Part shown: in pieces, positions 4,082-58,293 of the stretch
Layout: the number at the start of each line of letters is the position of its first letter
How positions within the stretch are numbered: position 1 is the first letter of the stretch
Assembly: GCA_021158245.1 (NCBI GenBank)
Contig: JAGGVB010000058.1
Location: forward strand, 24,349-88,348
Direction of reading: 5' to 3'
DNA length: 64,000 nucleotides
DNA from: a bacterium
GTDB taxonomy: Bacteria; Zhuqueibacterota; QNDG01
Translations under genes and position numbers: made by a program
The notes under the pieces: model-generated
Seen by the model: only the letters and a program-made list of their open reading frames with translations
What the model was told of the DNA's origin: nothing
Databases searched by the model: none

Positions 4082-4083
4082 AT

Positions 4084-4455: not shown

Positions 4456-4476
4456 ATATTATACGGGAAATAATGA

Positions 4477-6453: not shown

Positions 6454-6457
6454 TTGT

Positions 6458-7924: not shown

Positions 7925-7925
7925 A

Positions 7926-9311: not shown

Positions 9312-9314
9312 ATT

Positions 9315-10427: not shown

Positions 10428-10432
10428 AGCCA

Positions 10433-14003: not shown

Positions 14004-14022
14004 CCTTAAAAAGGGGCTATTC

Positions 14023-14397: not shown

Positions 14398-14430
14398 ATT
14401 AATCTTCCGGTTCATGCCGGATGGAGGTGT

Positions 14431-17497: not shown

Positions 17498-17500
17498 ACT

Positions 17501-18766: not shown

Positions 18767-18822
18767 TGCCGGTTTTTTAAAAAGGGAATTAATCACAGTT
18801 TGTACATATCAAGGAGGCCATA

Positions 18823-20016: not shown

Positions 20017-20022
20017 TTTTAT

Positions 20023-39440: not shown

Positions 39441-40791
39441 TAATAAACATTTTTGTATTTAACGTACGTTCAAAAAAATATTCATGCAGGGTTGAAACAA
39501 CATGTTTTATATCCTGCTCATCAATTACAAAACTGATATTTATTTCAGAAGCTCCCTGTGAAACCATATGAATAGGTACATCATTGAACAGATGGAATAT
39601 TCTTCCCATTATTGAAGGGTCATTTTTTAAAGTGCTGCCTACCACACAGACAATAGCTTTATTCTGCTGAAATTCAACTTTTGCAAATTCCTTAAGTTCC
39701 ATGATTATCTCATGAAGATGTTCCGTTTTGTAAATTGTAATTGAGACACTTACTTCTGACGTTGTTACAAGGTCTACAGGTGTTTCAAATTTATCAAAAA
39801 CTTTAAATATCGCAGACATAAATCCATAAGCCATCAGCATTCTTGTGGAAGTCACTGTAATTACAGTTATTCCCTCTTTGTAGGCAATTGATTTAACAAG
39901 TCCTGGTTCAGAAGGTACACTTTGGTCAAAGGTTATGAGAGTACCCTGTTCCGACGGATGCATGGAATTAAGAACTACTACCGGGATATTTTTTTCAATG
40001 GCCGGAATAAGCGTTGCAGGATGAAGAACTTTTGCTCCGAAATATGCAAGTTCCGCAGCTTCGTTAAAAGTCATCTGTTTTATCCTTCTTGCCTCGGATA
40101 TAATTGAAGGGTCAGCAGTAAGCACACCGTCAACATCTGACCATATCTCCACTCTGTCTGCTTCGAGAAGCGCACCGAATATAGTTGCTGAGTAGTCAGA
40201 GCCTCCCCGTCCCAGAGTTGTAGTTCTGCCAGAATTGTCACTTCCTACAAATCCCTGAATAACAGGTATTATTCCTTTGTCGGTGAGAGGGATGAGATAC
40301 TTCTTAATTCGTACAAATGAGGATGTCAAGTCAGGTTTTGCACAGCCGAAAGAACTGTCTGTAAGAAGAATATCCCGGGCGTCTGCCATTTGTGAATTTA
40401 TACCGCTTTTCCTCAGATTTGCAGATAGAAGATTTGCAGACAGAAACTCTCCTGTGCTGACAATTGAATCTGATATCTCAGGAGTGCATTGTGCTTCCGA
40501 AGATACTATCTCTTCTAAAAATGAGAAAGCGAATAATAAGCACTCTTCCCATTCAGAATCATGCAAAAACAGAAGCTCTCCTGTCATTATGTGGCGTTTT
40601 TTAATGTCAGATATTATCTCGTTTTTATTAGTATTTTTTTTACATAGCCTTAAAAGATTGTCTGTTACTCCGCTCATTGCAGAAACAACTATTATGGGAT
40701 TTTCCTGTTTCCTTGATTTTATTATGTTTGTTGCTCTCTGGACAGCTTCTGCATCTTTAAGAGAGGTACCTCCGAACTTCATCACTATCAT
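39421..40791 (-). CDS. lysC: Aspartate kinase (ACT-domain regulated)
   Basis: N-terminal MIVMKFGGTSL kinase motif and C-terminal tandem ACT domains. I place the start at 40791 (ATG with AAAGGAAAA SD); the track start at 40845 lies inside a terminator hairpin. Confidence 0.85.
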   Translation of the reverse strand: MIVMKFGGTSLKDAEAVQRATNIIKSRKQENPIIVVSAMSGVTDNLLRLCKKNTNKNEIISDIKKRHIMTGELLFLHDSEWEECLLFAFSFLEEIVSSEAQCTPEISDSIVSTGEFLSANLLSANLRKSGINSQMADARDILLTDSSFGCAKPDLTSSFVRIKKYLIPLTDKGIIPVIQGFVGSDNSGRTTTLGRGGSDYSATIFGALLEADRVEIWSDVDGVLTADPSIISEARRIKQMTFNEAAELAYFGAKVLHPATLIPAIEKNIPVVVLNSMHPSEQGTLITFDQSVPSEPGLVKSIAYKEGITVITVTSTRMLMAYGFMSAIFKVFDKFETPVDLVTTSEVSVSITIYKTEHLHEIIMELKEFAKVEFQQNKAIVCVVGSTLKNDPSIMGRIFHLFNDVPIHMVSQGASEINISFVIDEQDIKHVVSTLHEYFFERTLNTKMFINVEHGA

Positions 40792-40811
40792 ATAATTTTC
40801 CTTTATACAAA

Positions 40812-40850
40812 TAAAAAAGCTGATTGAATCCGCAGAAGTATTCAATCAGC
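40812..40850 (-). terminator. Intrinsic terminator hairpin (riboswitch expression platform) in the lysC leader
   Basis: On the minus strand: GCTGATTGAAT-ACTTCTGCGG-ATTCAATCAGC followed by TTTTTTAT, a perfect 11-bp stem plus U-tract, about 20 nt upstream of the lysC start. Confidence 0.65.
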
Positions 40851-41394: not shown

Positions 41395-41595
41395 TTATAC
41401 TTTTGATACCTTAATAGCCTGTAATCCTTTAGGACCCTGTCCTATCTCAAACATAACCTCGTCGCCTTCGTCCAGTGATTTGTAACCATCACCTTCAATC
41501 GCTTTGTAATGTACAAAAACATCATCCCCTTCTTCTCTGGAGATGAACCCATAGCCCTTAGAGCCATTGAACCATTTGACAGTACCTTTTTCCAT
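41395..41595 (-). CDS. cspA: Cold-shock protein, CspA family
   Basis: 66 aa with [19 protein letters not shown]1 and VFVHY RNP2 motifs; SD GAAGGA; long AT-rich 5' leader. Confidence 0.9.
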
Positions 41596-42278
41596 GAAAA
41601 CTATCCTTCATTTAAATATGTGTTTCGTACGTTTCTGTCTTCTGCAAAAAAAAATCGTGTTAACAGTGCTTGACTGTCATCCACGAATTTATTTTTGGTC
41701 TTATCGATGTTTTTACACGTCCTACAAATAAAACGAAAACAAGAAAACAGCTACGTACTATGAATTATTAAGAATAATATACAAAATGATAATTGATAAT
41801 GCAAGCAATTTCTTTAATTAAAACGATAAAATTTATATAATATGATAGTAAATCCTGTAATTATAGAGAGTTAACTGATAGAGGCTGTGTTTGTACGGGA
41901 AAATGCACAGATATTCATGGCAAAAGCAGCGTTGATTGATGCTATTCATTAAAAATACAATATTGGTACGTTAATTGCCTTAATTGGTTATGTAGTTAGA
42001 TGGTTCTTTGATAAAAATTTATTAACACTTTATATGTGATGATTGATAACTATATATAAATCAATTAGATATGGTTAAGATAAAAAATAATTATTATGTT
42101 AAATAATTAATTAATACTGGAATTAATTTGGCTGTTATAGGGTAAAAAATCACCGGTTACTGTTTAAAATAGTAGTCAGGACGTGCTGCAGAGGCAGTTG
42201 AATATGCAACTATAGGAGGTAAATATGTTCAAGATTGAAAAAAAAGAGTGGGGGTACTAAATTATTTTTAGTGATTTT

Positions 42279-42617
42279 ATGAAGGCTGAAGAGATGCAGA
42301 GGTGGCATGATGAATCAAAACAGAAGCTTCTATCTGCACCGAGTGAGTTTGGTGTTTTTGTGGATATGAGCAATATGAAACCACTCCCTGCAGATGCCCA
42401 GGAAGTTTTAAAAGCAGGACAGAAACTGTACAAAGAGAAGGGGATGGTCAGGTCTGTGGTTATTATAAACAGCACAATATTAAAATTGCAGTTTCGGCGT
42501 CTTGCTAAAGAGACTGGTATTTATGACTGGGAGCGCTATATTGATGCATCCAGTACACCGAACTGGGAAGAAGTAGGGATATCATGGATTAAAGACGGAG
42601 AAGATCCTGATAAATAG
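42279..42617 (+). CDS. Hypothetical protein (112 aa), no recognised domain
   Basis: ORF with terminator-like hairpin downstream (42683-42713). No SD of its own; preceded by an 11-codon mini-ORF with a strong SD. Confidence 0.35.
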   Translation: MKAEEMQRWHDESKQKLLSAPSEFGVFVDMSNMKPLPADAQEVLKAGQKLYKEKGMVRSVVIINSTILKLQFRRLAKETGIYDWERYIDASSTPNWEEVGISWIKDGEDPDK

Positions 42618-42824: not shown

Positions 42825-43340
42825 ATGAATACTAAAAAGATATTTATTATATTTTTTATAGCATTGTCATTATTATGCATTATTACAACTGTTAATGCCC
42901 AGACTGCAGATAATTTAAAAGGTATGCTAATTGATCTGAAAGGCTGGAATGCAAAAAAAGCTAATGGCATGGCTGTCAGCCTCGGCAGCATGAAAATGGC
43001 AAATGCATACCGCATTTATACGTTGAAAGATAAAAAAATTCATACAACAGTTTTGATAACAAGCAAGGAAGAGGCCTTACAGAAAATGGAGCCTGATATA
43101 AAACATAAGCCCAACTACAAAATTAGTAATTATACAATCAGAGGATTTAAGGTTGTTTCTGTTTATGATAAAAGAAAAAAGCAGGGTACTTTTATTGTTA
43201 CTCTGATAAAAAATAAAAGTAATTCCGGTGCAATATTTGCGTTTAATTACGATGGATTAAAAGAGAGAGAAGGTTTGGGCCTTGTTAAAAAGTTTGACTG
43301 GAAGAAGATGAAAAAAGAGGCAAAAGCTTTTCTTAAGTAA
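42825..43340 (+). CDS. Secreted hypothetical protein (signal peptide ...TVNA-QT), Lys-rich
   Basis: N-terminal hydrophobic signal sequence with an AXA-like cleavage site; no recognised domain. Confidence 0.45.
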   Translation: MNTKKIFIIFFIALSLLCIITTVNAQTADNLKGMLIDLKGWNAKKANGMAVSLGSMKMANAYRIYTLKDKKIHTTVLITSKEEALQKMEPDIKHKPNYKISNYTIRGFKVVSVYDKRKKQGTFIVTLIKNKSNSGAIFAFNYDGLKEREGLGLVKKFDWKKMKKEAKAFLK

Positions 43341-43648: not shown

Positions 43649-43664
43649 TGGCACGGCTTTTGCC
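43649..43664 (+). promoter_or_regulatory. Sigma-54 (RpoN) promoter, -24/-12 elements TGGCAC-N5-TTGC
   Basis: TGGCACGGCTTTTGCC matches the consensus TGGCACG-N4-TTGCW at 11 of 12 positions with correct GG/GC spacing, about 110 bp upstream of the first che gene. Confidence 0.6.
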
Positions 43665-43775
43665 GAAATACAAAAGTGTCTGGAAAATGTACATATTTTA
43701 GTATATAACATTACTTTTTGAAAAGTTCACTGTTCATTGTGAAAAAAGATCAGCATAAGGTAAGAGGAGGAAAAA

Positions 43776-44150
43776 TTGCCAGGTAAAATCCTTATTATTG
43801 ATGATGATATGGGCATGAGGATGCTTCTTTCAAAATTTCTGCAGCGCCAGGGCTTTGAAACACTCGTTGCCGAGGATGGCCTTGAAGGAGTGGAAATTGC
43901 CAAAAAAACAAACCCTGACCTGATTATAATGGATGTTGTGATGCCTAGAATGGATGGAATTACAGCTGCGCGGCTGATTAAATTCTACAAACCGCTGAGC
44001 AATGTGCCGATAATTTTTCTAACGGCAAAAGATGACAGTAAGGAAATTGAACTTGCTCAGGAAACCCGTGCAGATGTATATATTACGAAACCATTTGATG
44101 TCCACAAAGTGATTGAAGTTGTTGAAGATCTTTTATCAAAAACTCAATAA
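43776..44150 (+). CDS. cheY: CheY-like single-domain response regulator
   Basis: REC domain with DDD acidic pocket, phospho-acceptor D (IIMDVVMP), T (FLTAKDD) and K (ITKPF); TTG start 7 nt after a GGAGG SD. Confidence 0.85.
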   Translation: MPGKILIIDDDMGMRMLLSKFLQRQGFETLVAEDGLEGVEIAKKTNPDLIIMDVVMPRMDGITAARLIKFYKPLSNVPIIFLTAKDDSKEIELAQETRADVYITKPFDVHKVIEVVEDLLSKTQ

Positions 44151-44174
44151 CGGACATGGGAGATTGATTAATAT

Positions 44175-44672
44175 ATGAGTGATAGAGATCAGTATTTGAT
44201 ATTTGTGCTGGATAAAAAAAAGTTTGCAATCAACATAAAATCTGTAAAGAGAATAGCTCTGTCTGTGGAAGTTACAGACCTCCCTGAAGGGCCTGGTATT
44301 GTGATGGGTATAATAAATGTAAAAGGCCAGGTTATTCCTGTTGTAAACATTAGGAAAAGGTTTGGAATGCCGGGAAAAGATATAGACCTGATGGATCATT
44401 TTATAATTACTAAAACTTCAACACGAATAGTAGCTATGGTAGTTGATGATGTTATCGAAATAACAAAGATTGCAAACAATAAGAAGATACTTAAGGATGA
44501 AATACTTCCGGGAATGAAGCATGTAGCAGGTGCATTGAAAATTGCAGGAGACATTGTTCTCATTCATGATATCGAATCTTTCCTCAGCCTCGGAGAGGAA
44601 AGGGAGATTGATAAGGCATTAAAAAAAGTTAACGAAAAAGCAAAAAAGGGAAAGAAAACGAGTAAAAAATGA
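44175..44672 (+). CDS. cheW: CheW-like coupling protein
   Basis: Single CheW domain (LIFVLDKKKFAINIKSVKRIA...PGIVMGIINVKGQVIPVVNI). Confidence 0.85.
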   Translation: MSDRDQYLIFVLDKKKFAINIKSVKRIALSVEVTDLPEGPGIVMGIINVKGQVIPVVNIRKRFGMPGKDIDLMDHFIITKTSTRIVAMVVDDVIEITKIANNKKILKDEILPGMKHVAGALKIAGDIVLIHDIESFLSLGEEREIDKALKKVNEKAKKGKKTSKK

Positions 44673-46138
44673 TATCCCGCGTACCAAATATTCTTCTTGA
44701 CCAGCTAAGCGTATTTATTAACAGCGAAATGGGACTCCATTTTCCAAAGGAGAGGAGATTGGATCTGCTGCGCGGTGTAAGCGAATCTGCAGAAGAATTT
44801 GGATTCACCGATGTAGAAATGTGTATTAACTGGTTACTTTCATCACCTTTAAAAAAACGTCAGATAGAAATACTTGCCCGCCATCTTACAGTTGGCGAGA
44901 CATATTTTTTCCGTGAATCAAGAGTCTTTCAGGCACTTGAAAAAGATATTATTGCAGGTATTATTCAGGCACGGAGAAATGGCACTAAAACTATTTGTAT
45001 ATGGAGTGCAGGATGCTGCAGCGGAGAAGAACCCTATTCAATTGCAATACTTTTAACCAGAATGATACCTGATATTGATTCGTGGAAAATTGTGATTTTC
45101 GGTACTGATATAAATATAGATTTCCTTGAAAAGGCACAAAAAGGAATTTATCGCGAATGGTCATTCAGGAATACTCCTTTCTGGATTAAAGAGAAGTATT
45201 TTACACGTATTGATGACGGAGTTTATGAGATAATTCCAGGGATAAAGCGGCTTGTAAATTTTAGTTATCTTAATCTCGTTAGTGTCGAGAACCCGTCATT
45301 TATTAATTTACAGTCTTTTGATCTTATCCTTTGCCGAAATGTTTTGATGTATTTTTCTCAGGGACAAGTCAGGTCGGTTATTAACAGATTTTATGAAGGG
45401 CTTAATGATAACGGATGGCTGATTGTAGGATCAAGTGAAGCATCCCATATCCTGTTTTCTCAATTTCAGACTGTCAATTTTCCCGGCGCGATTGTTTATC
45501 GTAAAGATACTTCCAAAACGCCTTTTGAATTACCGGAAATTACGCATGATGAACCAGATCTCCCTGAATTACATCCTGTTACTGTTACGGATTTTTCAAA
45601 ATTTATTACCACGGACAATGAAACCGAAGAAGAAGATGATTTTACAGAGGCAATTAACGCATTTGAGGCAGGGAACTATAAACTTGCAACTGAAATCCTG
45701 AAAAAAGTAGTCAATGATCCTGTTTTATCTGAGAATGTACAGGTTTATTTACTTCTGTCCCGCAGTTGTGCAAATCTCGGTAATTTAAAGCATGCACTGA
45801 ACTGGGTTGAAAAGGGCCTTAAACATAATAAACTTGATTTTCAATTATATCAGCTGAAAGCAGAGATTTATCAGGAAATGGGGAAGCTGGATAAGGCTGT
45901 AGAATCTTTGAAAAATGTAATATATTTGGAGCCTGACTCTTTTGTAGCGTATTTTATTCTCGGAAATATTTCGCATCAGCTCGGTAAAGATAAAGAAGCA
46001 AAAAAATGTTTTGAGAATGCTGAAAAGCTGCTCAGATTAAAAGAAAGAGATGATGTGTTGACTGAATTTGACGGAATTACTGCAGGAAGAATGATTCATG
46101 TGATAGAGAGTATGAAAAATACGGAGAATCCCGGATGA
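44669..46138 (+). CDS. cheR: CheR-type MCP methyltransferase with C-terminal TPR repeats (WspC/FrzF-like)
   Basis: CheR N-terminal and SAM-binding domain (IWSAGCCSGEEPYSIAIL), then about 150 aa of TPR (LLSRSCANLGNLKHALNWVEKGLKHNK...). Confidence 0.85.
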   Translation: MISRVPNILLDQLSVFINSEMGLHFPKERRLDLLRGVSESAEEFGFTDVEMCINWLLSSPLKKRQIEILARHLTVGETYFFRESRVFQALEKDIIAGIIQARRNGTKTICIWSAGCCSGEEPYSIAILLTRMIPDIDSWKIVIFGTDINIDFLEKAQKGIYREWSFRNTPFWIKEKYFTRIDDGVYEIIPGIKRLVNFSYLNLVSVENPSFINLQSFDLILCRNVLMYFSQGQVRSVINRFYEGLNDNGWLIVGSSEASHILFSQFQTVNFPGAIVYRKDTSKTPFELPEITHDEPDLPELHPVTVTDFSKFITTDNETEEEDDFTEAINAFEAGNYKLATEILKKVVNDPVLSENVQVYLLLSRSCANLGNLKHALNWVEKGLKHNKLDFQLYQLKAEIYQEMGKLDKAVESLKNVIYLEPDSFVAYFILGNISHQLGKDKEAKKCFENAEKLLRLKERDDVLTEFDGITAGRMIHVIESMKNTENPG

Positions 46139-46713
46139 CCGAGGAAAGTAAAAATTCTACTATTGAAAAAAATAATAGCATGAGTAAAATAATATACATG
46201 CCTGATAAAAAGGCGGTATTAAAAAAACGTGCAGAGGCTCTTGCAAAAGAGATGGCTGATGAATGGCAGGATAAGGATAAGTTCGAAGTTGTCGAGTTTA
46301 TTCTTGCATACGAGTTGTATGGAATTAAATCGTCTTTTGTACAGGAGGTTTACCCTTTAAAAAATTTTACTCCGCTGCCCGGCACGCCACCGTTTTTACT
46401 TGGAATTACGAATATTCGGGGAAGGATTGTTTCCATTGTTGATATTAAAAAGCTTTTTAATCTGCCTGACAGCGGTATTACTGACCTTAACAGAGTGATT
46501 ATAATTGAGAATGGAGAGAGTGAACTCGGTATACTGGCTGATAGAATAATGGGTATAAGAAATATTTCGGATGTTGATTTTAAAGCAAATTTATTGGTCA
46601 CAAGTGATACTATAGGAAATTATATACACGGGATTACCGAGGATAAATTAATTGTCCTTGATGTGGACAAAATATTTGGTGATAAAAGATTAATAATAAA
46701 CTCGGAAGTATAA
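46135..46713 (+). CDS. cheW: Second CheW-like coupling protein
   Basis: CheW domain (ILAYELYGIKSSFVQEV...LLGITNIRGRIVSIVDI) with an about 50-aa N-terminal extension. Confidence 0.8.
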   Translation: MTEESKNSTIEKNNSMSKIIYMPDKKAVLKKRAEALAKEMADEWQDKDKFEVVEFILAYELYGIKSSFVQEVYPLKNFTPLPGTPPFLLGITNIRGRIVSIVDIKKLFNLPDSGITDLNRVIIIENGESELGILADRIMGIRNISDVDFKANLLVTSDTIGNYIHGITEDKLIVLDVDKIFGDKRLIINSEV

Positions 46714-46751
46714 AAATATATTAATAAAATAAACTTTGCACGGAGTACACT

Positions 46752-48356
46752 ATGTTAAGAAATCTGAAATTAAAGACAAAAATCTTTTTCATCCCTTTTC
46801 TTGCAGGAATTATACTGCTTACGATTTTTATTACAGCGGGCTTGATCAAAACCCAAAATGATAAGCTCCTGAATAGTATCCGCACAGAATATCTACCGGT
46901 TCAGGTTTTTAATTCCGAACTTAAATCAATACTTCAGGAAATGAATAGTGTTGTTGAACATGCTGCTTTGACACGAAACAAAGTTTTGGCAAAACAGGCA
47001 GATATCATTCATCAGCAATTCATAGCGGAATTATCAAGGGCAGAATCTGATCCTGTAATTAAACTTAGTCTAATGCCTGATAAAAATGAGTATGATAGTT
47101 TTTCCAGTGCTTTTCTGGATGTTGTTGATAAAATATCATCAGGCAGCAGTAAGAATCTAATTAATAGAAGTTTACAAAAATTAAAACCCATGCATGATAC
47201 ACTCAACTCAATAATTCAAAAAAATATTGTTAGAGAAAAAAGAAACGTTAGTCAGGCATTTTCCAGCATAGGGTCCAAAAACAGATTATTAATTATTTTA
47301 ATAGGATTAATAATTTTTATTGGACTTGCAATGAGTATGGTATTATCAATAGCTGTAATAAAATCAGTAATGGAACCTCTTGACATTGTAGTTAATGTAG
47401 CAGAACAGGTTGCAGACGGCCAATTGACCATTGATATTCCGGAAACCGAAGGAACTGATGAAATGAGCTCACTCCTTAGAACTTTCAGGAGAATGGTTAT
47501 AAGCCTCAGGGAAATGGCTGTACAGATCAAGGAGGCATCTAATGCACTTGCTTCTTCTGCCGGCCAGATTTCTACATCTGTAACTCAGATTGCATCTGCA
47601 GCTGCAGAAACAGCATCTGCTGCTACAGAGACAAATACAACTGTTGAAGAGGTCAGGCAGACTGCAATTGATTCGAACAAAAAAGCAAAGCATGTGTCGG
47701 AAAGTGCTCAAAAGTCTGTAAAAATTTCACAGGCAGGTGAGAAAACCGTTGCGGAAACAATTGAAGAGATGCAGAGGATTGAAGAGCAGATGGAATCTAT
47801 TGCAGAAAGTATTATGCGTTTAAGTGAACATGGACAGGCAATAAGCAGTATTATTACTACTGTTGAGGACGTGGCAGAGCAGTCAAGATTATTGGCTGTT
47901 AATGCTTCAATTGAAGCTGTAAAAGCCGGAGAGCAAGGGAAGGGTTTTGCTGTTGTAGCACAAGAGGTCAGAACACTTGCTGAGCAGTCAAAACAGGCTA
48001 CAAACCGAATAAGAGCAATTCTTGACGAAATTCAGAAATCTACGAGTGAAGCTGTTATGAAGACGGAGCAGGGTACAAAGGCCGTTAAATCCGGAGTGGA
48101 ACAATCGGCAAAATCCGGTGAAACAATTCAAAGACTGGCTAACAGCGTTACTGAAGCAGCACAGGCCACTACCCAGATAGCAGTATCCAGCCAGGAACAG
48201 ACAGTCGGCATGGATCAGGTTGTATCTGCAATGGAATCAATAAAACAGGCCAGTAATCAGAATGTAAGTGCAACAAAACAGGTGGAAGCTGCTGCTCAGG
48301 ATCTTTACAATCTTGGACAGACTTTGATGGATATTGTGAAATTATATAAATTATAG
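46752..48356 (+). CDS. Methyl-accepting chemotaxis protein (2 TM, periplasmic region, HAMP, MA domain)
   Basis: Highly conserved signalling hairpin (RLLAVNASIEAVKAGEQGKGFAVVAQEVRTLAEQS); TM helices at about 10-30 and 170-195. Confidence 0.9.
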   Translation: MLRNLKLKTKIFFIPFLAGIILLTIFITAGLIKTQNDKLLNSIRTEYLPVQVFNSELKSILQEMNSVVEHAALTRNKVLAKQADIIHQQFIAELSRAESDPVIKLSLMPDKNEYDSFSSAFLDVVDKISSGSSKNLINRSLQKLKPMHDTLNSIIQKNIVREKRNVSQAFSSIGSKNRLLIILIGLIIFIGLAMSMVLSIAVIKSVMEPLDIVVNVAEQVADGQLTIDIPETEGTDEMSSLLRTFRRMVISLREMAVQIKEASNALASSAGQISTSVTQIASAAAETASAATETNTTVEEVRQTAIDSNKKAKHVSESAQKSVKISQAGEKTVAETIEEMQRIEEQMESIAESIMRLSEHGQAISSIITTVEDVAEQSRLLAVNASIEAVKAGEQGKGFAVVAQEVRTLAEQSKQATNRIRAILDEIQKSTSEAVMKTEQGTKAVKSGVEQSAKSGETIQRLANSVTEAAQATTQIAVSSQEQTVGMDQVVSAMESIKQASNQNVSATKQVEAAAQDLYNLGQTLMDIVKLYKL

Positions 48357-48392
48357 AGATGTTTTTATTAATCATAACGTGCAGGTGAAATT

Positions 48393-48818
48393 ATGCAGAT
48401 AAGTGATCCGGAGTTTTTTAAGCAGATTCTTGAGATGTTCAGAATGGAAGCGCAGGAGCATCTTGAAACGATATCTTCCGGTGTTTCGAAGCTTAAACAG
48501 GGAGTTACAGGGCTTGAACGCAAGGAAGTTGTGGAAACTATATTCAGAGCAGCCCACAGCCTGAAAGGTGCTGCAAGGACAGTTGGAATAACTGATCTCG
48601 AAGAAATCGGCCAGGAGTTTGAGAAAATATTTTCAATGCTGAAGCAGAAGGAATCCATGCTGACAGATGATACTTTTGAAATTTTTGATATTGCAGAGAA
48701 TCAGCTTGGGCTTCTGATAAAATCTGTTGACAAAGAAGGAAAGGTGCTGGGCGATAAATCAGAGCTTGTCAGGCTTATAAGCCAGATACATGAAAGAATA
48801 TTGCTGCAAAACGCATAG
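48393..48818 (+). CDS. Stand-alone HPt (histidine phosphotransfer) domain protein
   Basis: HPt helix with phospho-His context FRAAHSLKGAARTVGI; 141 aa. Confidence 0.7.
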   Translation: MQISDPEFFKQILEMFRMEAQEHLETISSGVSKLKQGVTGLERKEVVETIFRAAHSLKGAARTVGITDLEEIGQEFEKIFSMLKQKESMLTDDTFEIFDIAENQLGLLIKSVDKEGKVLGDKSELVRLISQIHERILLQNA

Positions 48819-48856
48819 AAAAAAATATAATTGCTAAAGGCTGGTAATTAGGAGAA

Positions 48857-51199
48857 ATGATGAAAAACGATGACGACTTTCTTAAAGAGCTTTTATCTAT
48901 GTTTAAGGTGGAGGCAGAAGAACATCTGAAAATTATATCTTCAGGCCTTATAGATCTTGAGAAAGCATCAGACGGTGACAGACTTGAAATTTTAGAAATA
49001 ATTTACAGGGAAGCGCACAGTTTAAAAGGTGCAGCAAGAGCTGTAAATCTTATCAAAGTAGAACATTTATGCCAGGCTCTTGAAAGTATTTTTGCTTTAT
49101 TTAAAAGCGGGGAACTTAATCCGTCAAGAGAAATATTTGATGTACTGCTTGATGCTGTTGATGTTGTATCAGATGCGGTTGATTCTCCTGATTCTACTGA
49201 TATTAATAATATTTACAACAAACTTGAGCGCATTGAAAACATGAGCGTGAAAACTGTATCAGAAAGTGAAGTCAAAAAAAATATTAAAAAGCAGGCAACA
49301 AATAAAAGGAAACCAGTTACTGTTAAAAAGAAAGAAACCGGTAGTAAAAAAGTAACTGAATCTCATAAAAAAGAAGATGTACCAGAAATAAAAGATGACA
49401 TAAAAAATGTTAAAAGAGTGGATACCAAACCAATTGTCACAGATACAATACGTATCCCCACGTCAAGAATGGATTCTATCCTTCTTCAGGTTGAAGAAAT
49501 GGTTTCTACCAAGCTTGGGACGGAGCAGGTTACAACTGATCTCAAAGAGGTCCTTATTACAATGGACATCTGGAGAAAGGAATGGGAAAAAGTATATTCT
49601 TCAATAAGAAGAGGGCCGTCAGGCAGATTGGAAATTCTAGATAAAAATTCGAGCGAAGCTGAAGCAGAGTTTTTTAATTGGAATTTTCATCAATTGAGAG
49701 ATGTTGATGACAAGCTTAACTATGTTTATAAACTTGCAGAAATAAATTTCCGTCAATTAAGCGGAATGATTGACAATCTTCTCGAAGATATGAAAACCAT
49801 ATTAATGCTGCCGTTTTCAACACTTTTAAAGTTGGTTCCGAAAGTGGTCAGGGATATCAGCCGGGATCAGGATAAGGATGTTGAGCTTGTTATGCGCGGC
49901 AGTACTACGGAAGTTGACAGAAGAATACTTGAAGAGATAAAAGACCCTCTCATCCATCTTTTAAGGAACTGTATTGATCATGGTATTGAAAAACCAGAGG
50001 AAAGAAAAAAAACAGGGAAGCCGGAACAGGGGATAATATCCATATCAATTTCTCAGATTGAAGGCGATAAAATTGAAATAGTGGTGGAAGACGACGGCGC
50101 AGGGATTAATCCTGAAAAAGTTAAGAAAACTGCTGTTCAAAGAGGGATAATAAGTGAGCAGGAAGCCAGGCATCTGAGTGAGAAAGAAGCTATTTCTCTT
50201 ATTTTTGAATCAGATCTCTCTACCAGCCCGATAATTACTGATATCTCAGGAAGAGGCCTCGGGCTTGCGATAGTACGTGAAAAAGTAGAAAAATTGGGCG
50301 GCTTGATTCAATTAGAGACAGAGACTGGTAAAAGGACACGCTTTCGTATTGTGATACCTGTTACACTTGCTACTTTTCGGGGTACCCTGATAGAGGCCGG
50401 AGGGAATAGTTTTGTTGTGCCGACTGTAAATGTGGAACGTGCAATGAGGCTGCCGGTTAAAAAAATAAAAACAGTTGAGAATAAAAGAGTAGTAACAATT
50501 CACAATAAAATGATTTCTTTAATCCACTTGAGCGATGTGCTTGGGTTGAGGCGTGATGTCGGAACTGCAGCACAATCAGATATGCTGCAGTTTGTTATAA
50601 TCAGATCTGCAAATAAAATGGTTGCACTCGGAGTGGATTCAGTAGTCAATGAACAGGAGTTTTTAGTTAAAGGCCTCGGAAAACAGATAATTCGTGTAAA
50701 AAATATTGCAGGAGCAACGATTCTTGGATCGGGAAAGGTGGTGCCTATTCTTAATGTCCCGGATATTATCAAATCCGCAGAAAAAGTAATATCTTCCCCC
50801 CTGCAGGAGGTATCAATGCAAAAAAAACAGGAAGAAAAGAAGTCTATACTTATTGCAGAAGATTCAATAACATCACGAACGCTGCTTAAAAATATTCTTG
50901 AATCAGCAGGATATTCTGTTAAAGCAACTGTTGACGGTGCTGATGCTTTTTCAGCTTTGCGAAGCGGCAGGTATGACCTTGTAGTCTCTGATGTGGAAAT
51001 GCCGAGAATGAACGGTTTTGAACTTGTGTCAAATATCAGGAAAAACAGATCAACAACAGACACTCCTGTGATTCTTGTAACAGGGCTTGAGTCCAAGGAA
51101 GACAGGGAGAGAGGTATTGAAGTAGGAGCTAACGCCTACATTGTAAAAAGAAGTTTTGATCAGAGTAATTTACTTGATGTTATAAGTAAGCTAATTTAG
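48857..51199 (+). CDS. cheA: Hybrid CheA histidine kinase with C-terminal receiver (HPt-P3-HATPase-CheW-REC; WspE/FrzE-like)
   Basis: HPt (YREAHSLKGAARAV), N box LLRNCIDHGIE, G1 DDGAGIN, G2 GRGLGLAIV, CheW-like P5, then a REC domain (ILIAEDS...VVSDVEMPRMNGFEL...LVTG). Confidence 0.9.
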   Translation: MMKNDDDFLKELLSMFKVEAEEHLKIISSGLIDLEKASDGDRLEILEIIYREAHSLKGAARAVNLIKVEHLCQALESIFALFKSGELNPSREIFDVLLDAVDVVSDAVDSPDSTDINNIYNKLERIENMSVKTVSESEVKKNIKKQATNKRKPVTVKKKETGSKKVTESHKKEDVPEIKDDIKNVKRVDTKPIVTDTIRIPTSRMDSILLQVEEMVSTKLGTEQVTTDLKEVLITMDIWRKEWEKVYSSIRRGPSGRLEILDKNSSEAEAEFFNWNFHQLRDVDDKLNYVYKLAEINFRQLSGMIDNLLEDMKTILMLPFSTLLKLVPKVVRDISRDQDKDVELVMRGSTTEVDRRILEEIKDPLIHLLRNCIDHGIEKPEERKKTGKPEQGIISISISQIEGDKIEIVVEDDGAGINPEKVKKTAVQRGIISEQEARHLSEKEAISLIFESDLSTSPIITDISGRGLGLAIVREKVEKLGGLIQLETETGKRTRFRIVIPVTLATFRGTLIEAGGNSFVVPTVNVERAMRLPVKKIKTVENKRVVTIHNKMISLIHLSDVLGLRRDVGTAAQSDMLQFVIIRSANKMVALGVDSVVNEQEFLVKGLGKQIIRVKNIAGATILGSGKVVPILNVPDIIKSAEKVISSPLQEVSMQKKQEEKKSILIAEDSITSRTLLKNILESAGYSVKATVDGADAFSALRSGRYDLVVSDVEMPRMNGFELVSNIRKNRSTTDTPVILVTGLESKEDRERGIEVGANAYIVKRSFDQSNLLDVISKLI

Positions 51200-51214
51200 G
51201 GAAGATAAAAACCT

Positions 51215-52327
51215 ATGATTAAAGTTCTTGTCACAGAAGATTCCTCTGTTATAAGAAGTTATCTCGAACATGTACTCAACAATGATCCTGAACTGACTGT
51301 TGTGGGAACTGCATGTAACGGGCTTGAAGCAGTTGAAAAGGCTGCTGAATTAAAGCCTGATGTTATTACAATGGATATTCACATGCCGGGAATGGACGGA
51401 TTTGAAGCTACAAGAAAAATTATGGAAACAAATCCTGTCCCGATTGTTATATGCAGTGCAAGCTGGGATCCCACTGAAGTTAGTAAAACTTTTCGGTCAA
51501 TGGAAGCGGGAGCAGTTGCAGCCCTGGAAAAACCGAGAGGATTTTCTCATACTGACAGTGACGATTCCCTGCGTCAGCTTATAGATACCGTAAAAGCAAT
51601 GTCAAGTGTCAAAGTCGTAAGGAGATGGGCACGTTTAAGAAAGAAAGAAACGGTTATTACTTCGCATCATGTGCATACAGGGCATAAAAAAAGAAGCGGG
51701 CGGAAAACTTACAAAATAGTTGCCGTGGGATCTTCAACAGGTGGGCCTCTTGCACTTCAGAGTTTGCTTTCAAACATAGACAGAGACTTTCCTGTCCCAA
51801 TAGTAATTGTTCAGCACATTGCACCGGGGTTTCTTACAGGGCTTGCAGACTGGCTTGGAAAGACAACAAAGTACGATGTGAAAATAGCTGAAAATAATGA
51901 AAATATTTTACCTCGGAAAGCATATCTTGCTCCTGACAGATTTCATATGCTGATAACAAAAGATTTTAAAGTAAAGCTGATAAGCGGAGAAAGCAGAGAT
52001 CGGCTTTGCCCGTCAGTAGCTCATTTGTTTAAATCTATAGGAGATGAATTCGGAATGTCAGGTGTAGGTGTTTTATTAACCGGGATGGGTAGAGACGGAG
52101 CTGCAGAATTAAAAGAAATGCATGATAAGGGGGCCCTTACCTTTGCACAGGACGAGGATAGCTGTATTGTATTCGGAATGCCGGGTGAAGCTGTAGCTCT
52201 CGGCGCAGCTGACAAGGTGCTTCCGTGCCCGGATATAGCTGAAGAACTTAATAAAATGTTGATAGATAATGATGCGGAATTCAGGGATAAAGAGAAAAAA
52301 AGAGTTATAACTCATACTAATCAGTGA
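51215..52327 (+). CDS. cheB: Chemotaxis methylesterase CheB (REC + methylesterase)
   Basis: REC (VLVTEDS...ITMDIHMPGMDG) and CheB catalytic domain (VAVGSSTGGP, GMGRDGA, catalytic H in VQHIAPGF). Confidence 0.9.
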   Translation: MIKVLVTEDSSVIRSYLEHVLNNDPELTVVGTACNGLEAVEKAAELKPDVITMDIHMPGMDGFEATRKIMETNPVPIVICSASWDPTEVSKTFRSMEAGAVAALEKPRGFSHTDSDDSLRQLIDTVKAMSSVKVVRRWARLRKKETVITSHHVHTGHKKRSGRKTYKIVAVGSSTGGPLALQSLLSNIDRDFPVPIVIVQHIAPGFLTGLADWLGKTTKYDVKIAENNENILPRKAYLAPDRFHMLITKDFKVKLISGESRDRLCPSVAHLFKSIGDEFGMSGVGVLLTGMGRDGAAELKEMHDKGALTFAQDEDSCIVFGMPGEAVALGAADKVLPCPDIAEELNKMLIDNDAEFRDKEKKRVITHTNQ

Positions 52328-52336
52328 GAAAATATT

Positions 52337-55300
52337 ATGTCAATGCAAGATTTAAGACCAATTGAAGCCGATATTGAAATATTAGTTGTGGAAGACAGTC
52401 CGACTCAGGCAATGCATTTAAAATACATACTTGAGCGGAGAAATTATACGGTACATATGGCAACGAACGGCAAGGATGCCCTTGAAATGATGCGGAAACG
52501 TAAACCGACTATCGTGATAAGTGACATTCTGATGCCTGAAATGGACGGGTACGAATTCTGCCGCCAGATACGTGCCGATGAACAGCTGCAATATGTCCCT
52601 GTAATCTTGTTAACACAACTTTTTGATCCGAGAGATGTGATAAGAGGTCTGCTCAGCGGAGCTGACAATTTTGTTACAAAACCCTACAGTGAACAATTCC
52701 TTGTTTCCAGAATTCAGTACATACTTGCAAATCAGGAACTTAGAAAGAACTCAATTACTGAAATGGGTATAGAAATTATTTTTGCAGGGCAGAAACATTT
52801 TATAACTTCCGACAGAATGCAGATTCTGGATCTTCTGTTTTCAACTTTTGAGAATGCTGTACAGAGAAATCAGGAACTTGAAGAGACTAATAAAGAATTG
52901 AGAAGAGCAATAGAGACAATAGAGACAATCAATGAAGTAACAGGCAAGTTGAACAGGATGCTTATGCCGGAAGATGTTGCACGTGCAATCGGAGACGGTG
53001 TCAAAAAACTCATTGACTATGATGAGTGTATTGTATATTCGATTGATGAAAGTAAAAAATATCTTATCCCGATATTTGCAGGCCAGAGACAGGGAGAGAA
53101 AAACAGCGATAAAGTTAAAAAGTTAAAAATCGGAGAAGGGATTGTGGGCCTTGTCTATTCCCGTGGAAAACCTGAAATGGTGGGGGATATAACAAAGCAC
53201 CCCAAGGCCAGGTATCTGAAGAACAAAAATGTCCCGACATATTCCGTTCTTGCAGTACCTATGCAGTATGAAAACGAGACAATGGGAGTTATAGCACTGC
53301 TTAAAACAGGGCTGCATCAGTTCAGTGAATCCCACATGCGTACTCTTTTAATTCTTGCAGGACAGGCTGGAGTTGCAATGGAGAATGCCCGGCTCCTGCA
53401 GGAAGAGAAGAGGAGGATAAGACAGCTTTCTCTGATTAATGAGATTTCACGAAAAATGGTGTCAACTCTTGACGTGGAAGAACTAAGCGTTTATGTTGTA
53501 GAGTCAATTCAAAATGAATTCAAAGAGGATACAATACTGCTTCTCGTTAAAGATGAAGATGAGAATAAACTGGTAATTGGAGCTCATGCGGGTATTGAAA
53601 GTAAAAAATTCCATGACGGCTGGATTTTGGAAAAAGACTCCTCTGCTGTATGGAAGGCTGCAAAATCCGGTGAAGTTGTTACTGTAAATGATATTAAGAA
53701 AATAAAGGATCTGCAGCCGCTAATTGCAGGTATTCGTTCGGAAATAGCAGCCCCTATTAAGAAAGGGGATAAACTGCTTGGAGTTCTGCACATAATGAGT
53801 AAAAAGAGTGATTCGTTTAATGAAAAGGATTCCGCTTTAATGAAAATGCTTGCGGATCAGATTGCAATGGCACTTGAGAATGCAAGATTATATGAAAGCG
53901 AAAGAAAAACAAGTGAACTTGCACAGCAGGCTAACAGAGCAAAAAGTGAATTTCTTGCCAATATGAGTCATGAGATCAGGACTCCTATGAACAGCATTAT
54001 AGGATTCTCCGATCTGCTGCTTCAGGAGAATCTGCCCGAAGAATTGGTCGATTTCGCAAAGACTATCAAGCTTAACGGTGAAAGCCTTCTGGAAATTATT
54101 AACCAGATTCTTGATCTGGCAAAGGTCGAAACAGGGCGTATGGAAGTGGATGTTGTGGAGTGTAATTTATCCGAACTTGTTGAAAATGTTTCACAGCTGC
54201 TCAGGCCGAGAGTTCTTGACAAAGGGCTTAAGTTTAAAGTTTCGACTGAACCTGAACATCTTCCGTATATTGAAAGCGACAGTCTTAAGATTCGTCAGAT
54301 TATGGTTAATCTCCTCGGCAATTCGGTCAAATTTACTGAAGACGGGGAGATAGGGTTTAGTGTAAATGTACGGAAACAGAAGAATGCCAGAGGTATGCTG
54401 GAAGTACATGTATCAGATACCGGTATTGGAATAGCCCCGAACAAACATCAAGCTATATTTGAATCGTTCACTCAGGCTGATGCGTCAATGACACGCCGGT
54501 TTGGGGGAACAGGCCTTGGCCTATCATTGAGCAAGCAGATGGTTGAACTGTTAGGCGGCAAAATCTGGTTTGAATCTGACCTCGGAAAAGGGACTACATT
54601 CCACTTTAGCGTGCCTGTAAGGATAATTTCGGAAAAAGTCGGAGTTCCTGTTAAAAAAGTGCAGAAGGCACAAATAAAAGCTGTAGGTGCCGGAAAAGGA
54701 AAAACAAAGCAGATAAGTATACAGACAAAAAAGAAGCGTAAAGAGCCGCTTGTGCTTTTAATAGAAGATAACGGCAGTGCAATGGAACTGCTTCAGAGAT
54801 ATCTTAAACGTGACGGCTATGAAGTGCAGTGCAGTACAACAGGTGATGATGGAATTCTTAAGGCAAAATTCTACAGGCCTGATGCTATTATTCTGGAAAT
54901 TTTATTACCTGGAAAGATGGACGGGTGGGAAGTGCTTAGAAATCTTAAATCAAGTACTTTAACCAAAGATATTCCGGTCATAGTATGTTCCGTACTTTCA
55001 AACCAGAAAAAGGCGTACAGCCTTGGTGCAGTGGAGTATATTGAAAAGCCTGCACAGGAGAAGGCCCTTCTTGATACTTTACACAAGTCCATAGGGCTGA
55101 GTGATAAGAAAAATAAGGAAGTCCTTGTTGTAGATGATGACAAATCCGTACACGTGCTTTTCGGCAAACTTCTTAAAAGCATGGGTGTAATTGTGAAGAA
55201 TTTTGAGAATGGGAATGATGTAGTAAAGTATCTTGAAAGCCCGCATCCTATTGCACTTGTAATACTGGATCTTTTAATGCCTGGTGTAGACGGGTTTGAG

Positions 55301-56224
55301 GTTCTTAAAAAGATCAAATCTTCAGAAAAGACAAAAGATATACCAGTTGTTATTTATACAGGTAAAAAACTTACTTCAAGAGACAGATCCCGGCTTAATG
55401 AAAATTATGCACTTCTTTTACAGAAAACAAGTGAAACGCCTGAAACACTGTTAAATCAGCTTAATAATCTTGTTATGCCGTCTCTCAGAGAGGCAATTGA
55501 TAAAGCAATGCAGGAAGAGGAAGAGGCTGTAAGAATTCTTCTTGCAGAGGACGATCCTTCGGGGCAGAAACTAATGCGGCTTCTTTTAAGTCAGTTGGGA
55601 TATGCTGTAGACCTTGCAGGTACAGGCCAGCAGGTTCTTGATATGCTTAAAAAGAAAGATTATGATATTGTGCTTATGGATATGGAAATGCCTGTAATGG
55701 ATGGCTTTACTGCAACGCGCAAGCTTAGAAGTATGGAGAAATACAAGGATATGCCGATAATTGCGCTTACTGCACATGCAATGAAGGAACACAAGAAAAA
55801 GACACTTGAGGCAGGATGTACGGATTATCTGTCAAAACCTATAAATCGCGACAAATTGCAGGATATCCTCAATAAATACCTTGCAGACCCCGGCGTACCG
55901 GAGGAAAAAGAATCAAAAACGGAACAGACAAATTTGATTGCAGATGACCCACTTATGGCTGAACTAAGAGAATTCTTCATTGATGACCTGTCTAAAAAGA
56001 TAAAGAAATTTAATGAGGATATGGAAAAGAAGGATATTGATGAAGTTATAAGATTCGGCCATTCTCTTAAAGGCACAGCAGGATCATACGGATTCCCTGT
56101 TTTTTCCAAACTTGGTGCTCAGATAGAAGATTACGGCCGTGAAGGCAAGTGGGATGAAATAGCATCTCTGCAAATTGCTATTGTAAAAGAGTATAAACTG
56201 CTTGGAGTTAATGATGAAGCCTGA
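52337..56224 (+). CDS. Giant hybrid sensor kinase: REC-coiled coil-GAF-GAF-HisKA-HATPase-REC-REC-REC-HPt
   Basis: REC1 (ILVVEDS...[12 protein letters not shown]); two GAF-like modules; H box [18 protein letters not shown]; G2 box [24 protein letters not shown]. Three further REC domains (LLIEDN...[12 protein letters not shown]; LVVDDD...[11 protein letters not shown]; LLAEDD...[11 protein letters not shown]) and a C-terminal HPt ([14 protein letters not shown]). Confidence 0.85.
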
Positions 56225-57347
56225 GAATATGACTATTTTAACTGTTGATGATACACCGGCCAATATTCGTCTTTTAACTCATTATCTTGAGAAAGAGGGC
56301 TATAATGTACTTACAGCAGAAGACGGATTTGAAGGATTCAAATCTGCTATTAAGTACCATCCCGATCTTGTGCTGCTCGATGTTATGATGCCCGGAACTG
56401 ACGGATACGAAGTTTGCGAGCTTTTAAAAGCCGAAGAGACAACAAAAGATATACCTATTGTTTTTTTAACGGCAAAAACAGATGTTGAAGACAGACTCCA
56501 CGGTTTTGAATTGGGAGCTAAAGATTTTATAACAAAGCCTTTTAATCTTTCCGAAATTTCTACGAGAATAAAGACACAATTAGAACTTACCTATCTTAAA
56601 ATCCAGAATGAGCATTTGTCAGAAGCTCTTTTTTCCTCCCAGAGAGCTGCAGGGTCAGGTTATATTGGTTTAAAACTTTCAACTCAGATAAAATCTTTTT
56701 TGGATATGCTTCACAGCAGGTTAAAGAGAATTCAGGAAAAAGCTGATCCTGACAGCGCAGTTCAACAGGCTGCTTCAATTGCTGTTGAACTTGAGTCACG
56801 TATTAAATTATTAGTGGAAACATGGTATGATTTTGCCGATGAAAAGCCCGAAATTCCCAGAGTTTTTAATCTGGTTCCTCTATTAATAGATATTGTTGAG
56901 CTCATAGAATTCAATGTAGAAGGAATATCTGTCAAGTATTCTGTCCCGGAAGAGCCTGTGATGATTGAAAGCAGGTATTCGTTAATTCAGCAGGCCATGA
57001 TTGCATTACTTGTAAATCTGTCGGCAGAAGTAAAATATCAGGGCGGGATAGAGATTTCGAGCAGTATGGGCCGGCTTCCGAAAAGGTTTGAAAATCAGCT
57101 AAAGGAAAAGCCTGAGAGCGAATATCTGCATATCAGTATCCAGTGTGAATGCAAATGGGGAACTGATGATATACCTTCGGTAGAGTTAGAAAATTTTTAT
57201 TTCTCCAAAAATCATCCTGATGCTGCATTTGGCCTGACTGTGGCATCTGCGTTTGTTACAAGATATCAGGGAATTGCAGCAATTGAGCAGGGCAATAGTA
57301 ATGGAGTTATGATTTCTCTGTACATTCCTGCAAATAGCGCAGCATGA
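56202..57347 (+). CDS. Response-regulator receiver fused to a divergent histidine-kinase-like C-terminal domain
   Basis: Canonical REC (ILTVDDT...[12 protein letters not shown]...FLTAKTD...ITKPF), then about 250 aa with an H-box-like [13 protein letters not shown] and a degenerate HATPase-like tail ([33 protein letters not shown]). 23-nt overlap with the upstream gene; the exact start is uncertain (three Met within 10 codons). Confidence 0.55.
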
Positions 57348-57507: not shown

Positions 57508-58293
57508 ATGAGTAAGTTGTTAGTATTTGATTTTGACGGAGTTATATGCAACTCATATCACGATTCATTAATGACCTCAATCAATACATACATAGAACTC
57601 GTTTCTGAGCATGACTTACCTGTATCTTCGAAACTATCGGAAAAATCAGTATTTGAGTTTGAAGAAAGGGAAAAAGAATTCTGCAGAATGTTCAGGGAAT
57701 TAATGCCTCTCGGGAATTTTGCTCATGATTATTATGTAATATTAAGGATTGTTGAGCAAAACGTTTTTAACACAATTAAAACCCAGGAAGACTTTGATAA
57801 ATTTAAAAAGTCGTGTTCGCCGGATATAATTGACAGTTATCAAAAAAGATTTTATAAGGTCAGGTACGATATGCAGACAAATGATCCGGAAGCGTGGGTT
57901 GGAATTTTGCCTGCTTTTACAGGCGTGATTCCTGCTGTAACGAAGCTGTCAGAAAAATACACTCTTGCAATAGCAACATCAAAAGATGTCAGGTCTGTAG
58001 AAATTCTGCTGAAAGAGTATGACCTGATAAACTATTTTGAACATGAAAATATCCTTGATAAAGATTATGCCCGTTCAAAAAGGGAACACCTTGTAACATT
58101 TTCAAAGAAGCATGCTGTTGATTTTTCCGATATGAGTTTTATAGACGACAAGGTACTTCATCTTGTTTCAGTAAGAGATCTGGGCGTGAATCTTTTTCTG
58201 GCAACCTGGGGATTTAATACCGAACGGGAGTATGATATTGCCAGGGCAAATGGCTGCCGTTTATTGAAGCTTGATGAGCTGAACACTCTTTAA
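57508..58293 (+). CDS. HAD-superfamily hydrolase
   Basis: Motif I LVFDFDGVI at the N-terminus. Start placed at ATG 57508, 7 nt after a GGGAGG SD (the track start at 57469 lacks an SD). Confidence 0.6.
   Translation: MSKLLVFDFDGVICNSYHDSLMTSINTYIELVSEHDLPVSSKLSEKSVFEFEEREKEFCRMFRELMPLGNFAHDYYVILRIVEQNVFNTIKTQEDFDKFKKSCSPDIIDSYQKRFYKVRYDMQTNDPEAWVGILPAFTGVIPAVTKLSEKYTLAIATSKDVRSVEILLKEYDLINYFEHENILDKDYARSKREHLVTFSKKHAVDFSDMSFIDDKVLHLVSVRDLGVNLFLATWGFNTEREYDIARANGCRLLKLDELNTL

Follow-up and report, generated by a model that had tools for sequence, protein, structure and literature searches.

A conserved ten-gene chemosensory unit with a sigma-54-type promoter and probable output through a kinase phosphorelay

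What does a chemosensory array address when the gene that follows cheB encodes a histidine kinase? The question is raised by a 64-kb stretch of DNA (the window, by which the whole of the analysed stretch is meant), in which ten genes are packed on the (+) strand between 43776 and 57347. An open reading frame (ORF) listing with Pfam and NCBIfam scans shows the complete gene set that an earlier note on this DNA had read from the letters: the genes from cheY to cheB, a 1295-aa kinase and a receiver protein are all present as ORFs with the named Pfam domains. The analysis covers gene content, conserved linkage, the promoter element, the intact or degenerate state of catalytic and phospho-acceptor residues, and fold. 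The reading that we favour, with a probability of about 0.6, is that the genes form a sigma-54-transcribed operon of the alternative cellular function (ACF) type, whose closest studied relative is the Che3 system of Rhodospirillum centenum and which feeds a kinase phosphorelay; its output would probably be gene regulation or a developmental or surface behaviour, and not direct control of a motor. The ten genes, in which REC denotes a receiver domain, are as follows.

43776–44150, (+): CheY-like receiver, single-domain, 124 aa (Pfam Response_reg, E 6e-28)
44175–44672, (+): first CheW coupling protein (Pfam CheW, E 2e-25)
44669–46138, (+): CheR methyltransferase with C-terminal TPR (Pfam CheR, E 7e-51; TPR_8, TPR_2 and TPR_1 at residues 330–455)
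46135–46713, (+): second CheW coupling protein, with an N-terminal extension (Pfam CheW, E 2e-27, residues 52–183)
46752–48356, (+): transmembrane chemoreceptor, or methyl-accepting chemotaxis protein (MCP) (Pfam HAMP and MCPsignal)
48393–48818, (+): stand-alone Hpt of the CheA P1 type, 141 aa (Pfam Hpt, E 9e-16)
48857–51199, (+): CheA-REC hybrid kinase (Pfam Hpt, HATPase_c, CheW and Response_reg; NCBIfam CheA models, 237–297 bits)
51215–52327, (+): CheB methylesterase with a receiver (Pfam CheB_methylest, E 4e-57; NCBIfam PRK00742, 350 bits against a cutoff of 293)
52337–56224, (+): 1295-aa hybrid kinase, REC-GAF-GAF-HisKA-HATPase-REC-REC-REC-Hpt (Pfam)
56214–57347, (+): 377-aa protein, a REC followed by a degenerate DHp-CA region (Pfam sees the receiver alone)

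Intergenic distances within the set lie between −11 and +38 nt, with two 4-nt overlaps, by which the cheR-TPR gene is joined to each of its neighbours, gaps of 9–38 nt, and one 11-nt overlap between the last two genes. The hybrid kinase gene begins 9 nt past cheB. A gene for a HAD hydrolase (57508–58293) trails the last gene by 160 nt in the window. No terminator was found between the two, and read-through into the HAD gene is possible in this genome. At the corresponding position in related loci there are unrelated genes, often on the opposite strand. The HAD gene was rejected as a member of the unit because it is absent from the other loci; since it is not conserved across them, the unit is taken to end at 57347.

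The identical ten genes in identical order are found in six further metagenomic loci with differing flanks. Their CheA proteins are 53–82% identical to that of the window (L013, 82%; L012, 73%; L011, 69%; L014, 56%; L015, 55%; L019, 53%), and the last three of these loci have a distinct genomic context, with thioredoxin genes upstream. CheR-TPR is kept in every related locus, and the hybrid kinase gene follows cheB in all seven. This bears out the proposal that a REC-first kinase occupies the place, directly behind cheB, where WspR would sit in a Wsp system. The kinase is the better conserved of the two, at 62–90% identity across loci compared to 53–82% for CheA. The ten genes are a real, well-conserved operon-like unit. 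Proteins of the window have exact matches in metagenomic contigs of several samples. When genome contigs were searched with CheA alone, one close relative was found, on a fragment of a KSB1 metagenome-assembled genome (MAG), and two more CheA matches carry the KSB1 label; the source of the window is probably an uncultured bacterium of candidate phylum KSB1. A more distant cluster occurs in a Candidatus Methanoperedens MAG (L016, 5503–17178, (+)), in the order CheW-CheR/TPR-CheW-PAS-MCP-CheA/REC-REC-CheB-REC/GAF/PAS kinase and with a CheA 49% identical to that of the window, so this type of cluster crosses the boundary between bacteria and archaea. In the Methanoperedens MAG and in a Binatia MAG a REC-first kinase likewise follows cheB.

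A near-consensus sigma-54 promoter had been placed in front of the unit, and the comparison of loci upholds it. The element and two further features that bear on it are these.

43649–43664, (+): −24/−12 element of the sigma-54 type, TGGCACGGCTTTTGCC (consensus match and conservation)
43665–43775, (+): leader of about 110 nt, conserved; a TTG start follows its AGGAGG ribosome-binding site
30469–31626, (−): sigma-54 enhancer-binding protein, 385 aa, AAA+ core, lid and HTH_8 in a PspF-like layout, adjoining the LptE gene

The core of the element, TGGCACGGCTTTTGC at 43649–43663, matches TGGCAC-N5-TTGC exactly, as no other site in the window does, where chance would give 0.10 such sites. A single match of this kind is weak support, and the comparison between loci carries more weight. 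In 7/7 loci the first gene has a −24/−12 element 120–132 nt ahead of its start codon; five of these elements are exact and two carry one change, at the sixth base. In an alignment of the four closest loci, conservation sets in sharply at the element, and a relaxed form of the pattern occurs only 10 times in the 775 kb of sequence examined. The assignment as a putative sigma-54 promoter is thus supported by phylogenetic footprinting. Blocks of the leader are conserved between the window and L011–L013, and partly in L014 and L019; they include a TTTCC-N-TTTGAAA-like block about 70–85 nt downstream of the −12 element, and an Rfam scan of the leader gave no family match. The TTG start and ribosome-binding site of the first gene are also conserved. 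The enhancer-binding protein has no N-terminal regulatory domain and is encoded 12 kb from the che promoter; its presence in the window indicates that the organism uses sigma-54.

At 41964–41978 (+), about 300 nt before an unassigned ORF (42279–42617), there is another sigma-54-like site, TGGTACGTTAATTGC, which has one mismatch. Two one-mismatch sites were found in the window and three are expected, and the site at 41964 alone is at chance level.

The state of the phosphorylation sites was read by aligning the eight receivers to E. coli CheY and then aligning six orthologues. A phospho-acceptor Asp is kept in seven of the eight: D53 of the CheY-like protein, D712 of CheA, D54 of CheB, D63, D978 and D1115 of REC1, REC3 and REC4 of the hybrid kinase, and D56 of the last protein. 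All four His sites are present, namely H55 of the free Hpt, H54 of CheA P1, and H545 and H1242 of the hybrid kinase and its Hpt. These residues are conserved throughout, save at one receiver. In the hybrid kinase, which reads REC1 (Asp63)-GAF-GAF-HisKA (His545)-HATPase-REC2 (Glu854)-REC3 (Asp978)-REC4 (Asp1115)-Hpt (His1242), the second receiver carries Glu in place of Asp in 6/6 aligned orthologues (codon at 54896 in the window). The domain order proposed for this protein therefore stands in Pfam, and what has to be amended is that the second of the four receivers has Glu at its phospho-site. REC2 is among the best conserved domains of the kinase (73–96% identical); judged by this conservation, it is a putative pseudo-receiver that is maintained and not one that is decaying. 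REC1 is 77–96% identical among orthologues, and its Asp63 is invariant.

CheA consists of P1 (His54), a linker, the kinase, a CheW-like P5 and a receiver (Asp712); no P2 domain was detected by Pfam. Its core has its best match among annotated replicons, clearly above other matches, in Niveispirillum (Azospirillaceae), at 42.5% identity, where the cluster runs CheW-CheR/TPR-CheW-MCP-CheA/REC-CheB. The free Hpt shares 41% identity with P1 of the CheA encoded next to it and matches both N-terminal Hpt domains of a two-Hpt CheA homologue of 1030 aa (P0019); in the longer CheA homologues, of about 1015–1030 aa, the equivalent Hpt is fused as a second N-terminal Hpt. As a paralogue of P1 that is fused in longer homologues, the free Hpt together with CheA is best described, on present alignments, as a predicted split two-Hpt CheA. 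CheAs with more than one Hpt are found mostly in the ACF and type IV pilus (Tfp) classes (PMC10782961).

The MCP has a first transmembrane helix, a periplasmic domain of about 145 aa, a second transmembrane helix, HAMP and a signalling domain, with hydrophobic segments at about 10–32 and 178–203. Its periplasmic domain has no Pfam match in the window protein, and five orthologues gave noise alone. From the end of HAMP to the C-terminus there are 280 residues (40 heptads); the spans matched to P. putida PcaY (6s18) are of equal length, whereas the comparison to Tsr gives 32 residues more. A receptor of the 40H class is expected for ACF systems, and the length of this MCP is consistent with a 40-heptad receptor. 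Among annotated replicons the nearest receptor signalling domain is that of the MCP in the Niveispirillum CheR-TPR cluster, to which the protein is 49% identical over 344 residues, with two gap positions.

The last protein of the unit had been described as a receiver fused to a degenerate kinase-like domain, and profile, profile hidden Markov model (HMM) and structure-prediction evidence agree with that description. Its receiver (Asp56) is about 85–97% conserved while its C-terminal 250 residues diverge fast; over the whole length, the orthologues of L014 and L015 are down to about 40% identity with the window protein, and in that of L014 the first DHp helix is missing. The C-terminal domain of the window protein has no Pfam or NCBIfam match, and one orthologue gives a weak HATPase_c match (E 0.063). 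A profile of three C-terminal sequences matches histidine kinases of solved structure (KinB 3d36, E 8.5e-5; ThkA 3a0r). Word-indexed homologue searches with the domain or the profile returned three proteins only, and an exhaustive HMM search was used instead, which gave 4697 proteins. Among the ten top matches of that search, Pfam finds HisKA with HATPase_c in seven, a weak HATPase_c alone in one and REC alone in two; the relatives include small REC-HisKA-HATPase proteins of equal length. Catalytically complete relatives keep the H-box (HNxNNL) and the N, G1 and G2 boxes, and all motifs are kept in the distant P0125, P0126 and P0193. In the 377-aa protein, Thr157 stands at the phospho-His position, the G1 and G2 boxes are lost and Asn268 of the N-box is kept. 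Across the orthologue group the H-box position is occupied by Thr (in the window), Ala, Ser, Gly, Cys or His, with His missing in five of the six aligned members; G1 and G2 are absent and the N-box Asn is mostly kept.

An AlphaFold model built from a ten-sequence alignment (pLDDT 83.5; a single-sequence model, at pLDDT 45, was unusable) shows a receiver that is followed by a single long helix, a helical hairpin and an alpha/beta domain, and helix 112–176 is continuous from alpha5 of the receiver. Foldseek ranks Leptospira LvrB first (8vc9, E 2e-19), with a match that spans the whole protein, and the DHp-CA regions of ZraS and CckA come next (TM-score 0.67–0.69). The combination of an LvrB-like predicted fold with loss of the H-box His and the G boxes identifies the protein as a REC fused to a putative degenerate DHp-CA pseudo-kinase. 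LvrB is the prototype of the Rec-controlled histidine kinases; the hybrid kinase LvrA, which acts upstream of it, activates it, and LvrC receives its signal (PMC13269768). The arrangement in Leptospira is alike, in that the gene next to that of the hybrid kinase, on its downstream side, encodes a REC-long helix-DHp-CA protein, and LvrB (379 aa, Asp56) is close to the present protein (377 aa, Asp56) in length and phospho-site. It differs in being an active kinase with a phospho-His (H161), where Thr157 and lost G1 and G2 boxes are found here. The Lvr genes are also unlinked to che genes, and an LvrC-like REC-anti-sigma gene is not seen here. LvrB is a mechanistic precedent for DHp-CA modules controlled by a receiver (PMC13269768).

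To which kind of chemosensory system does the unit belong? Formal membership of the ACF class goes by class-specific HMMs of CheA (P3-P4-P5); one mark of the class is a multidomain response regulator encoded in the cluster, as given in passages of PMC3447774 (after Wuichet and Zhulin 2010). Two such proteins are found here, the hybrid kinase and the REC-degenerate DHp/CA protein. CheR-TPR, a strong correlate of the class, is present; so is a CheA with a C-terminal receiver and without P2, and the extra Hpt that goes with it is of the P1 type and encoded separately. In the same passages, CheR-TPR is reported predominantly in ACF clusters and its genes mostly in clusters with multidomain response regulators, of which about 40% have HisKA and HATPase, in combinations with GAF, HPT and extra REC domains (Munoz-Martinez et al. 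2012, PMC3447774); REC-first histidine kinases are the commonest output there. One entry, Polaromonas REC-PAS-HisK-HATPase-REC-HPT, resembles the present kinase. The parts of that table cited here differ from the window in that two GAF domains, three C-terminal receivers (one of them a Glu pseudo-receiver) and a partner pseudo-kinase are found in the latter; KSB1 genomes postdate 2012.

The earlier note had called the cluster Wsp/Frz-like. Its parts are indeed those of a non-canonical, Wsp-related system: as in Pseudomonas Wsp there are two CheW proteins, CheR-TPR, CheA-REC and CheB, with an output protein encoded after cheB. The output of Wsp is the REC-GGDEF protein WspR, whereas the unit here has no GGDEF, has the MCP after the second cheW and has extra genes for a CheY-like protein and an Hpt. 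Wsp systems have the gene order MCP-CheW-CheR-CheW-CheA-CheB, with the MCP first. An orthologue of Wsp was therefore rejected, because output domain and gene order differ. The likeness to Frz was dropped altogether: FrzCD is cytoplasmic whereas the MCP here has two transmembrane segments, and no FrzZ-type REC-REC protein is encoded, so membership fails on receptor topology and on the absence of FrzZ.

The gene order resembles that of Che3 of R. centenum, with the MCP after the second cheW. That system, which controls cyst formation, also has one MCP, CheR, CheB, two CheW, CheA-REC, a single-domain CheY and an in-cluster second kinase that begins with a receiver; CheA3 phosphorylates REC1 of this kinase, CheS3, and CheS3 phosphorylates CheY3 (PMC3868531, PMC4436063). 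The logic is shared, in that a chemosensory kinase addresses a second kinase and not a motor. CheS3, however, is a REC-REC-PAS-HWE kinase without C-terminal receivers or Hpt, whereas the kinase here has a HisKA-type core, GAF in place of PAS, and the three C-terminal receivers and Hpt of a full multi-step relay. The free P1-type Hpt and the REC-pseudo-kinase are absent from R. centenum Che3, and the phyla differ. The claim that the output is a phosphorelay kinase instead of a motor or a cyclic di-GMP effector is thus right in outline; it is not unusual, given the share of about 40% in the cited passages of PMC3447774 and the example of R. centenum Che3 (PMC3868531).

A link between chemosensory action and sigma-54 is known from Che3 of Myxococcus xanthus, which, as described in the cited part of PMC3147164, acts on the CrdS/CrdA two-component pathway tied to sigma-54-dependent transcription, CrdA being an NtrC homologue. 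The likeness extends to L014, where an NtrC-type response regulator (REC-Sigma54_activat-HTH_8; 19704–21062, (+)) is encoded 1.2 kb downstream of the cluster and is a candidate for the terminal regulator or the promoter activator. The M. xanthus system differs in having no CheY, for which a CheY-like gene is present here, and the cluster in the window has no adjoining NtrC-type regulator; such a regulator is absent in or beside the cluster in the window and in five of the six other loci.

Following the Che3 precedent, we infer the phosphotransfer steps and the output as follows. The receptor, with its two transmembrane segments, would sense a periplasmic signal and control CheA via the two CheW proteins, while CheR-TPR and CheB would provide methylation-based adaptation. 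CheA is expected to phosphorylate His54 in its own P1 and probably also His55 of the free P1-like Hpt, from which the phosphate would pass to CheB, to the receiver of CheA itself, serving as a sink, and to Asp63 in REC1 of the hybrid kinase. REC1 and the ligands of the two GAF domains may together set the activity of the kinase core (His545), which would run an internal His-Asp-His relay from His545 via REC3/REC4 to His1242. The Hpt at His1242 may then phosphorylate the receiver of the pseudo-kinase (Asp56), the CheY-like protein (Asp53), or both. The pseudo-kinase is predicted to be unable to autophosphorylate; most likely it would turn phosphorylation of its receiver into a change of a helical DHp-like and CA-like surface that binds a partner, which may be the hybrid kinase itself or else a kinase or regulator from another locus. 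Possibly, though we hold this quite tentatively, the pseudo-kinase would define a REC-controlled pseudo-histidine-kinase and be the relay's true output: once Asp56 is phosphorylated, the DHp/CA-like surface would switch and then bind and regulate either the hybrid kinase or some distant kinase or regulator, in the style of RetS and GacS, and the permanently 'on-like' pseudo-receiver at Glu854 would be part of the switch. If so, this would be a lineage-wide device for chemosensory-to-pseudokinase signalling, possibly looping back on its own sigma-54 promoter.

Several observations weigh against the favoured reading. On the side of transcription, no enhancer-binding protein can be assigned to the che promoter, no shared inverted repeat or activator site was found upstream of the −24 element in six loci, and rpoN is not seen in the window. 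On the side of output, the CheY-like protein has D12, D13, D57, T87, Y106 and K109 (E. coli CheY numbering) all present, and a motor whose genes lie elsewhere could be its target; in KSB1, clades II and IV have both flagellar and che genes (PMC9012183). In the Binatia MAG (L018, 1–6785, (+)), two more hybrid kinases and, just upstream, a REC-MshEN-T2SSE (pilus-type) ATPase precede the related cluster, and in L015 (1–1941, (+)) secretin and T2SSE genes lie 3 kb upstream; a pilus-related output is possible in some relatives.

These last observations would fit a unit that serves chemotaxis by flagella or by type IV pili or gliding, with the CheY-like protein as the true output on a distant motor and the hybrid kinase and pseudo-kinase only modulating the signal or draining phosphate. 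CheA-REC speaks for this as well: it occurs in classes F3, F5 and Tfp and is not exclusive to ACF, and multi-Hpt CheAs are found in Tfp systems too (PMC10782961). We nevertheless consider motility control unlikely. CheR-TPR points to ACF clusters in the passages of PMC3447774 already cited, and the CheA has a single CheW domain and is therefore not F5-like. Among the window ORFs that were scanned, and in what is conserved between the seven loci, there are no flagellar, pilus, CheC/D/Z or CheV genes. The earlier statement that CheC/D/Z, flagellar and GGDEF/EAL genes are not seen was confirmed for the scanned ORFs of the window, and none was found beyond the cluster in 10 kb of L001. Finally, the hybrid kinase is always present and better conserved than CheA, which is unexpected for an accessory.

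It is more doubtful still that the hybrid kinase and the REC-pseudo-kinase are an independent two-component unit like LvrA and LvrB, sharing a transcript with the che module and exchanging no phosphate with it. The pair does resemble the Leptospira proteins, which work without che genes, and the kinase owns GAF sensor domains. However, the pair follows cheB in 7/7 loci despite differing flanks, and at a distance of only 9 nt in the window; the intact REC1 needs a phosphodonor, CheA is the only other kinase in the unit, and in the R. centenum analogue CheA3 phosphorylates exactly such a receiver. That the flow could be opposite, with the GAF-sensing hybrid kinase as the primary sensor whose Hpt feeds CheY, CheB or CheA-REC so that cytoplasmic signals tune receptor methylation and array output, is very unlikely as the whole account, since, although His1242 is intact and must have an external acceptor, with four free or terminal receivers in the operon, the conserved N-terminal receiver of the kinase would be left without a donor; both directions together are possible.

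On the favoured reading of a chemosensory operon that feeds a kinase relay, the picture of chemosensory diversity is not changed: kinase output of ACF-type systems is already catalogued, and one such system has been dissected biochemically. What is new are the conserved Glu pseudo-receiver, the split-off P1, the LvrB-like putative pseudo-kinase partner and the lineage-wide sigma-54 promoter, which are modestly interesting and experimentally tractable. From an uncultured lineage, probably KSB1, the window adds a well-delimited, strongly conserved chemosensory array that is apparently wired to a multi-step phosphorelay, and it offers concrete residues for test: His54, His55, Asp63, His545, Glu854, Asp978, Asp1115, His1242 and Asp56. 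It also suggests that an LvrB-type REC-DHp-CA protein can persist catalytically dead yet with a conserved receiver, which bears on pseudo-kinase signalling in bacteria.

Directly upstream of the operon lies a gene for a 171-aa protein (42825–43340, (+)) with a signal-peptide-like N-terminus and no Pfam match; ORFs of similar size stand at the matching position in L013 (171 aa) and L012 (174 aa). Farther upstream is a cold-shock-type ORF of 66 aa (41395–41595, (−)) with a KWFN motif; at its position in L011 and L012, Pfam reports CSD. The remainder of the window is mostly housekeeping, with a dcw cluster, peptidases, LptE, DNA ligase, GcpE, DAP decarboxylase and aspartokinase. The aspartokinase gene (39421–40845, (−)) has a lysine riboswitch in its leader (RF00168, 40876–41055, (−); 104 bits against a gathering threshold of 30), a textbook arrangement. 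The dcw division and cell-wall cluster occupies 2608–20016 (+); MraZ, MraW and FtsZ are identified by Pfam and the remainder is assigned from ORF order. Downstream of it are a radical SAM gene and an ORF6N-domain ORF (21578–21952).

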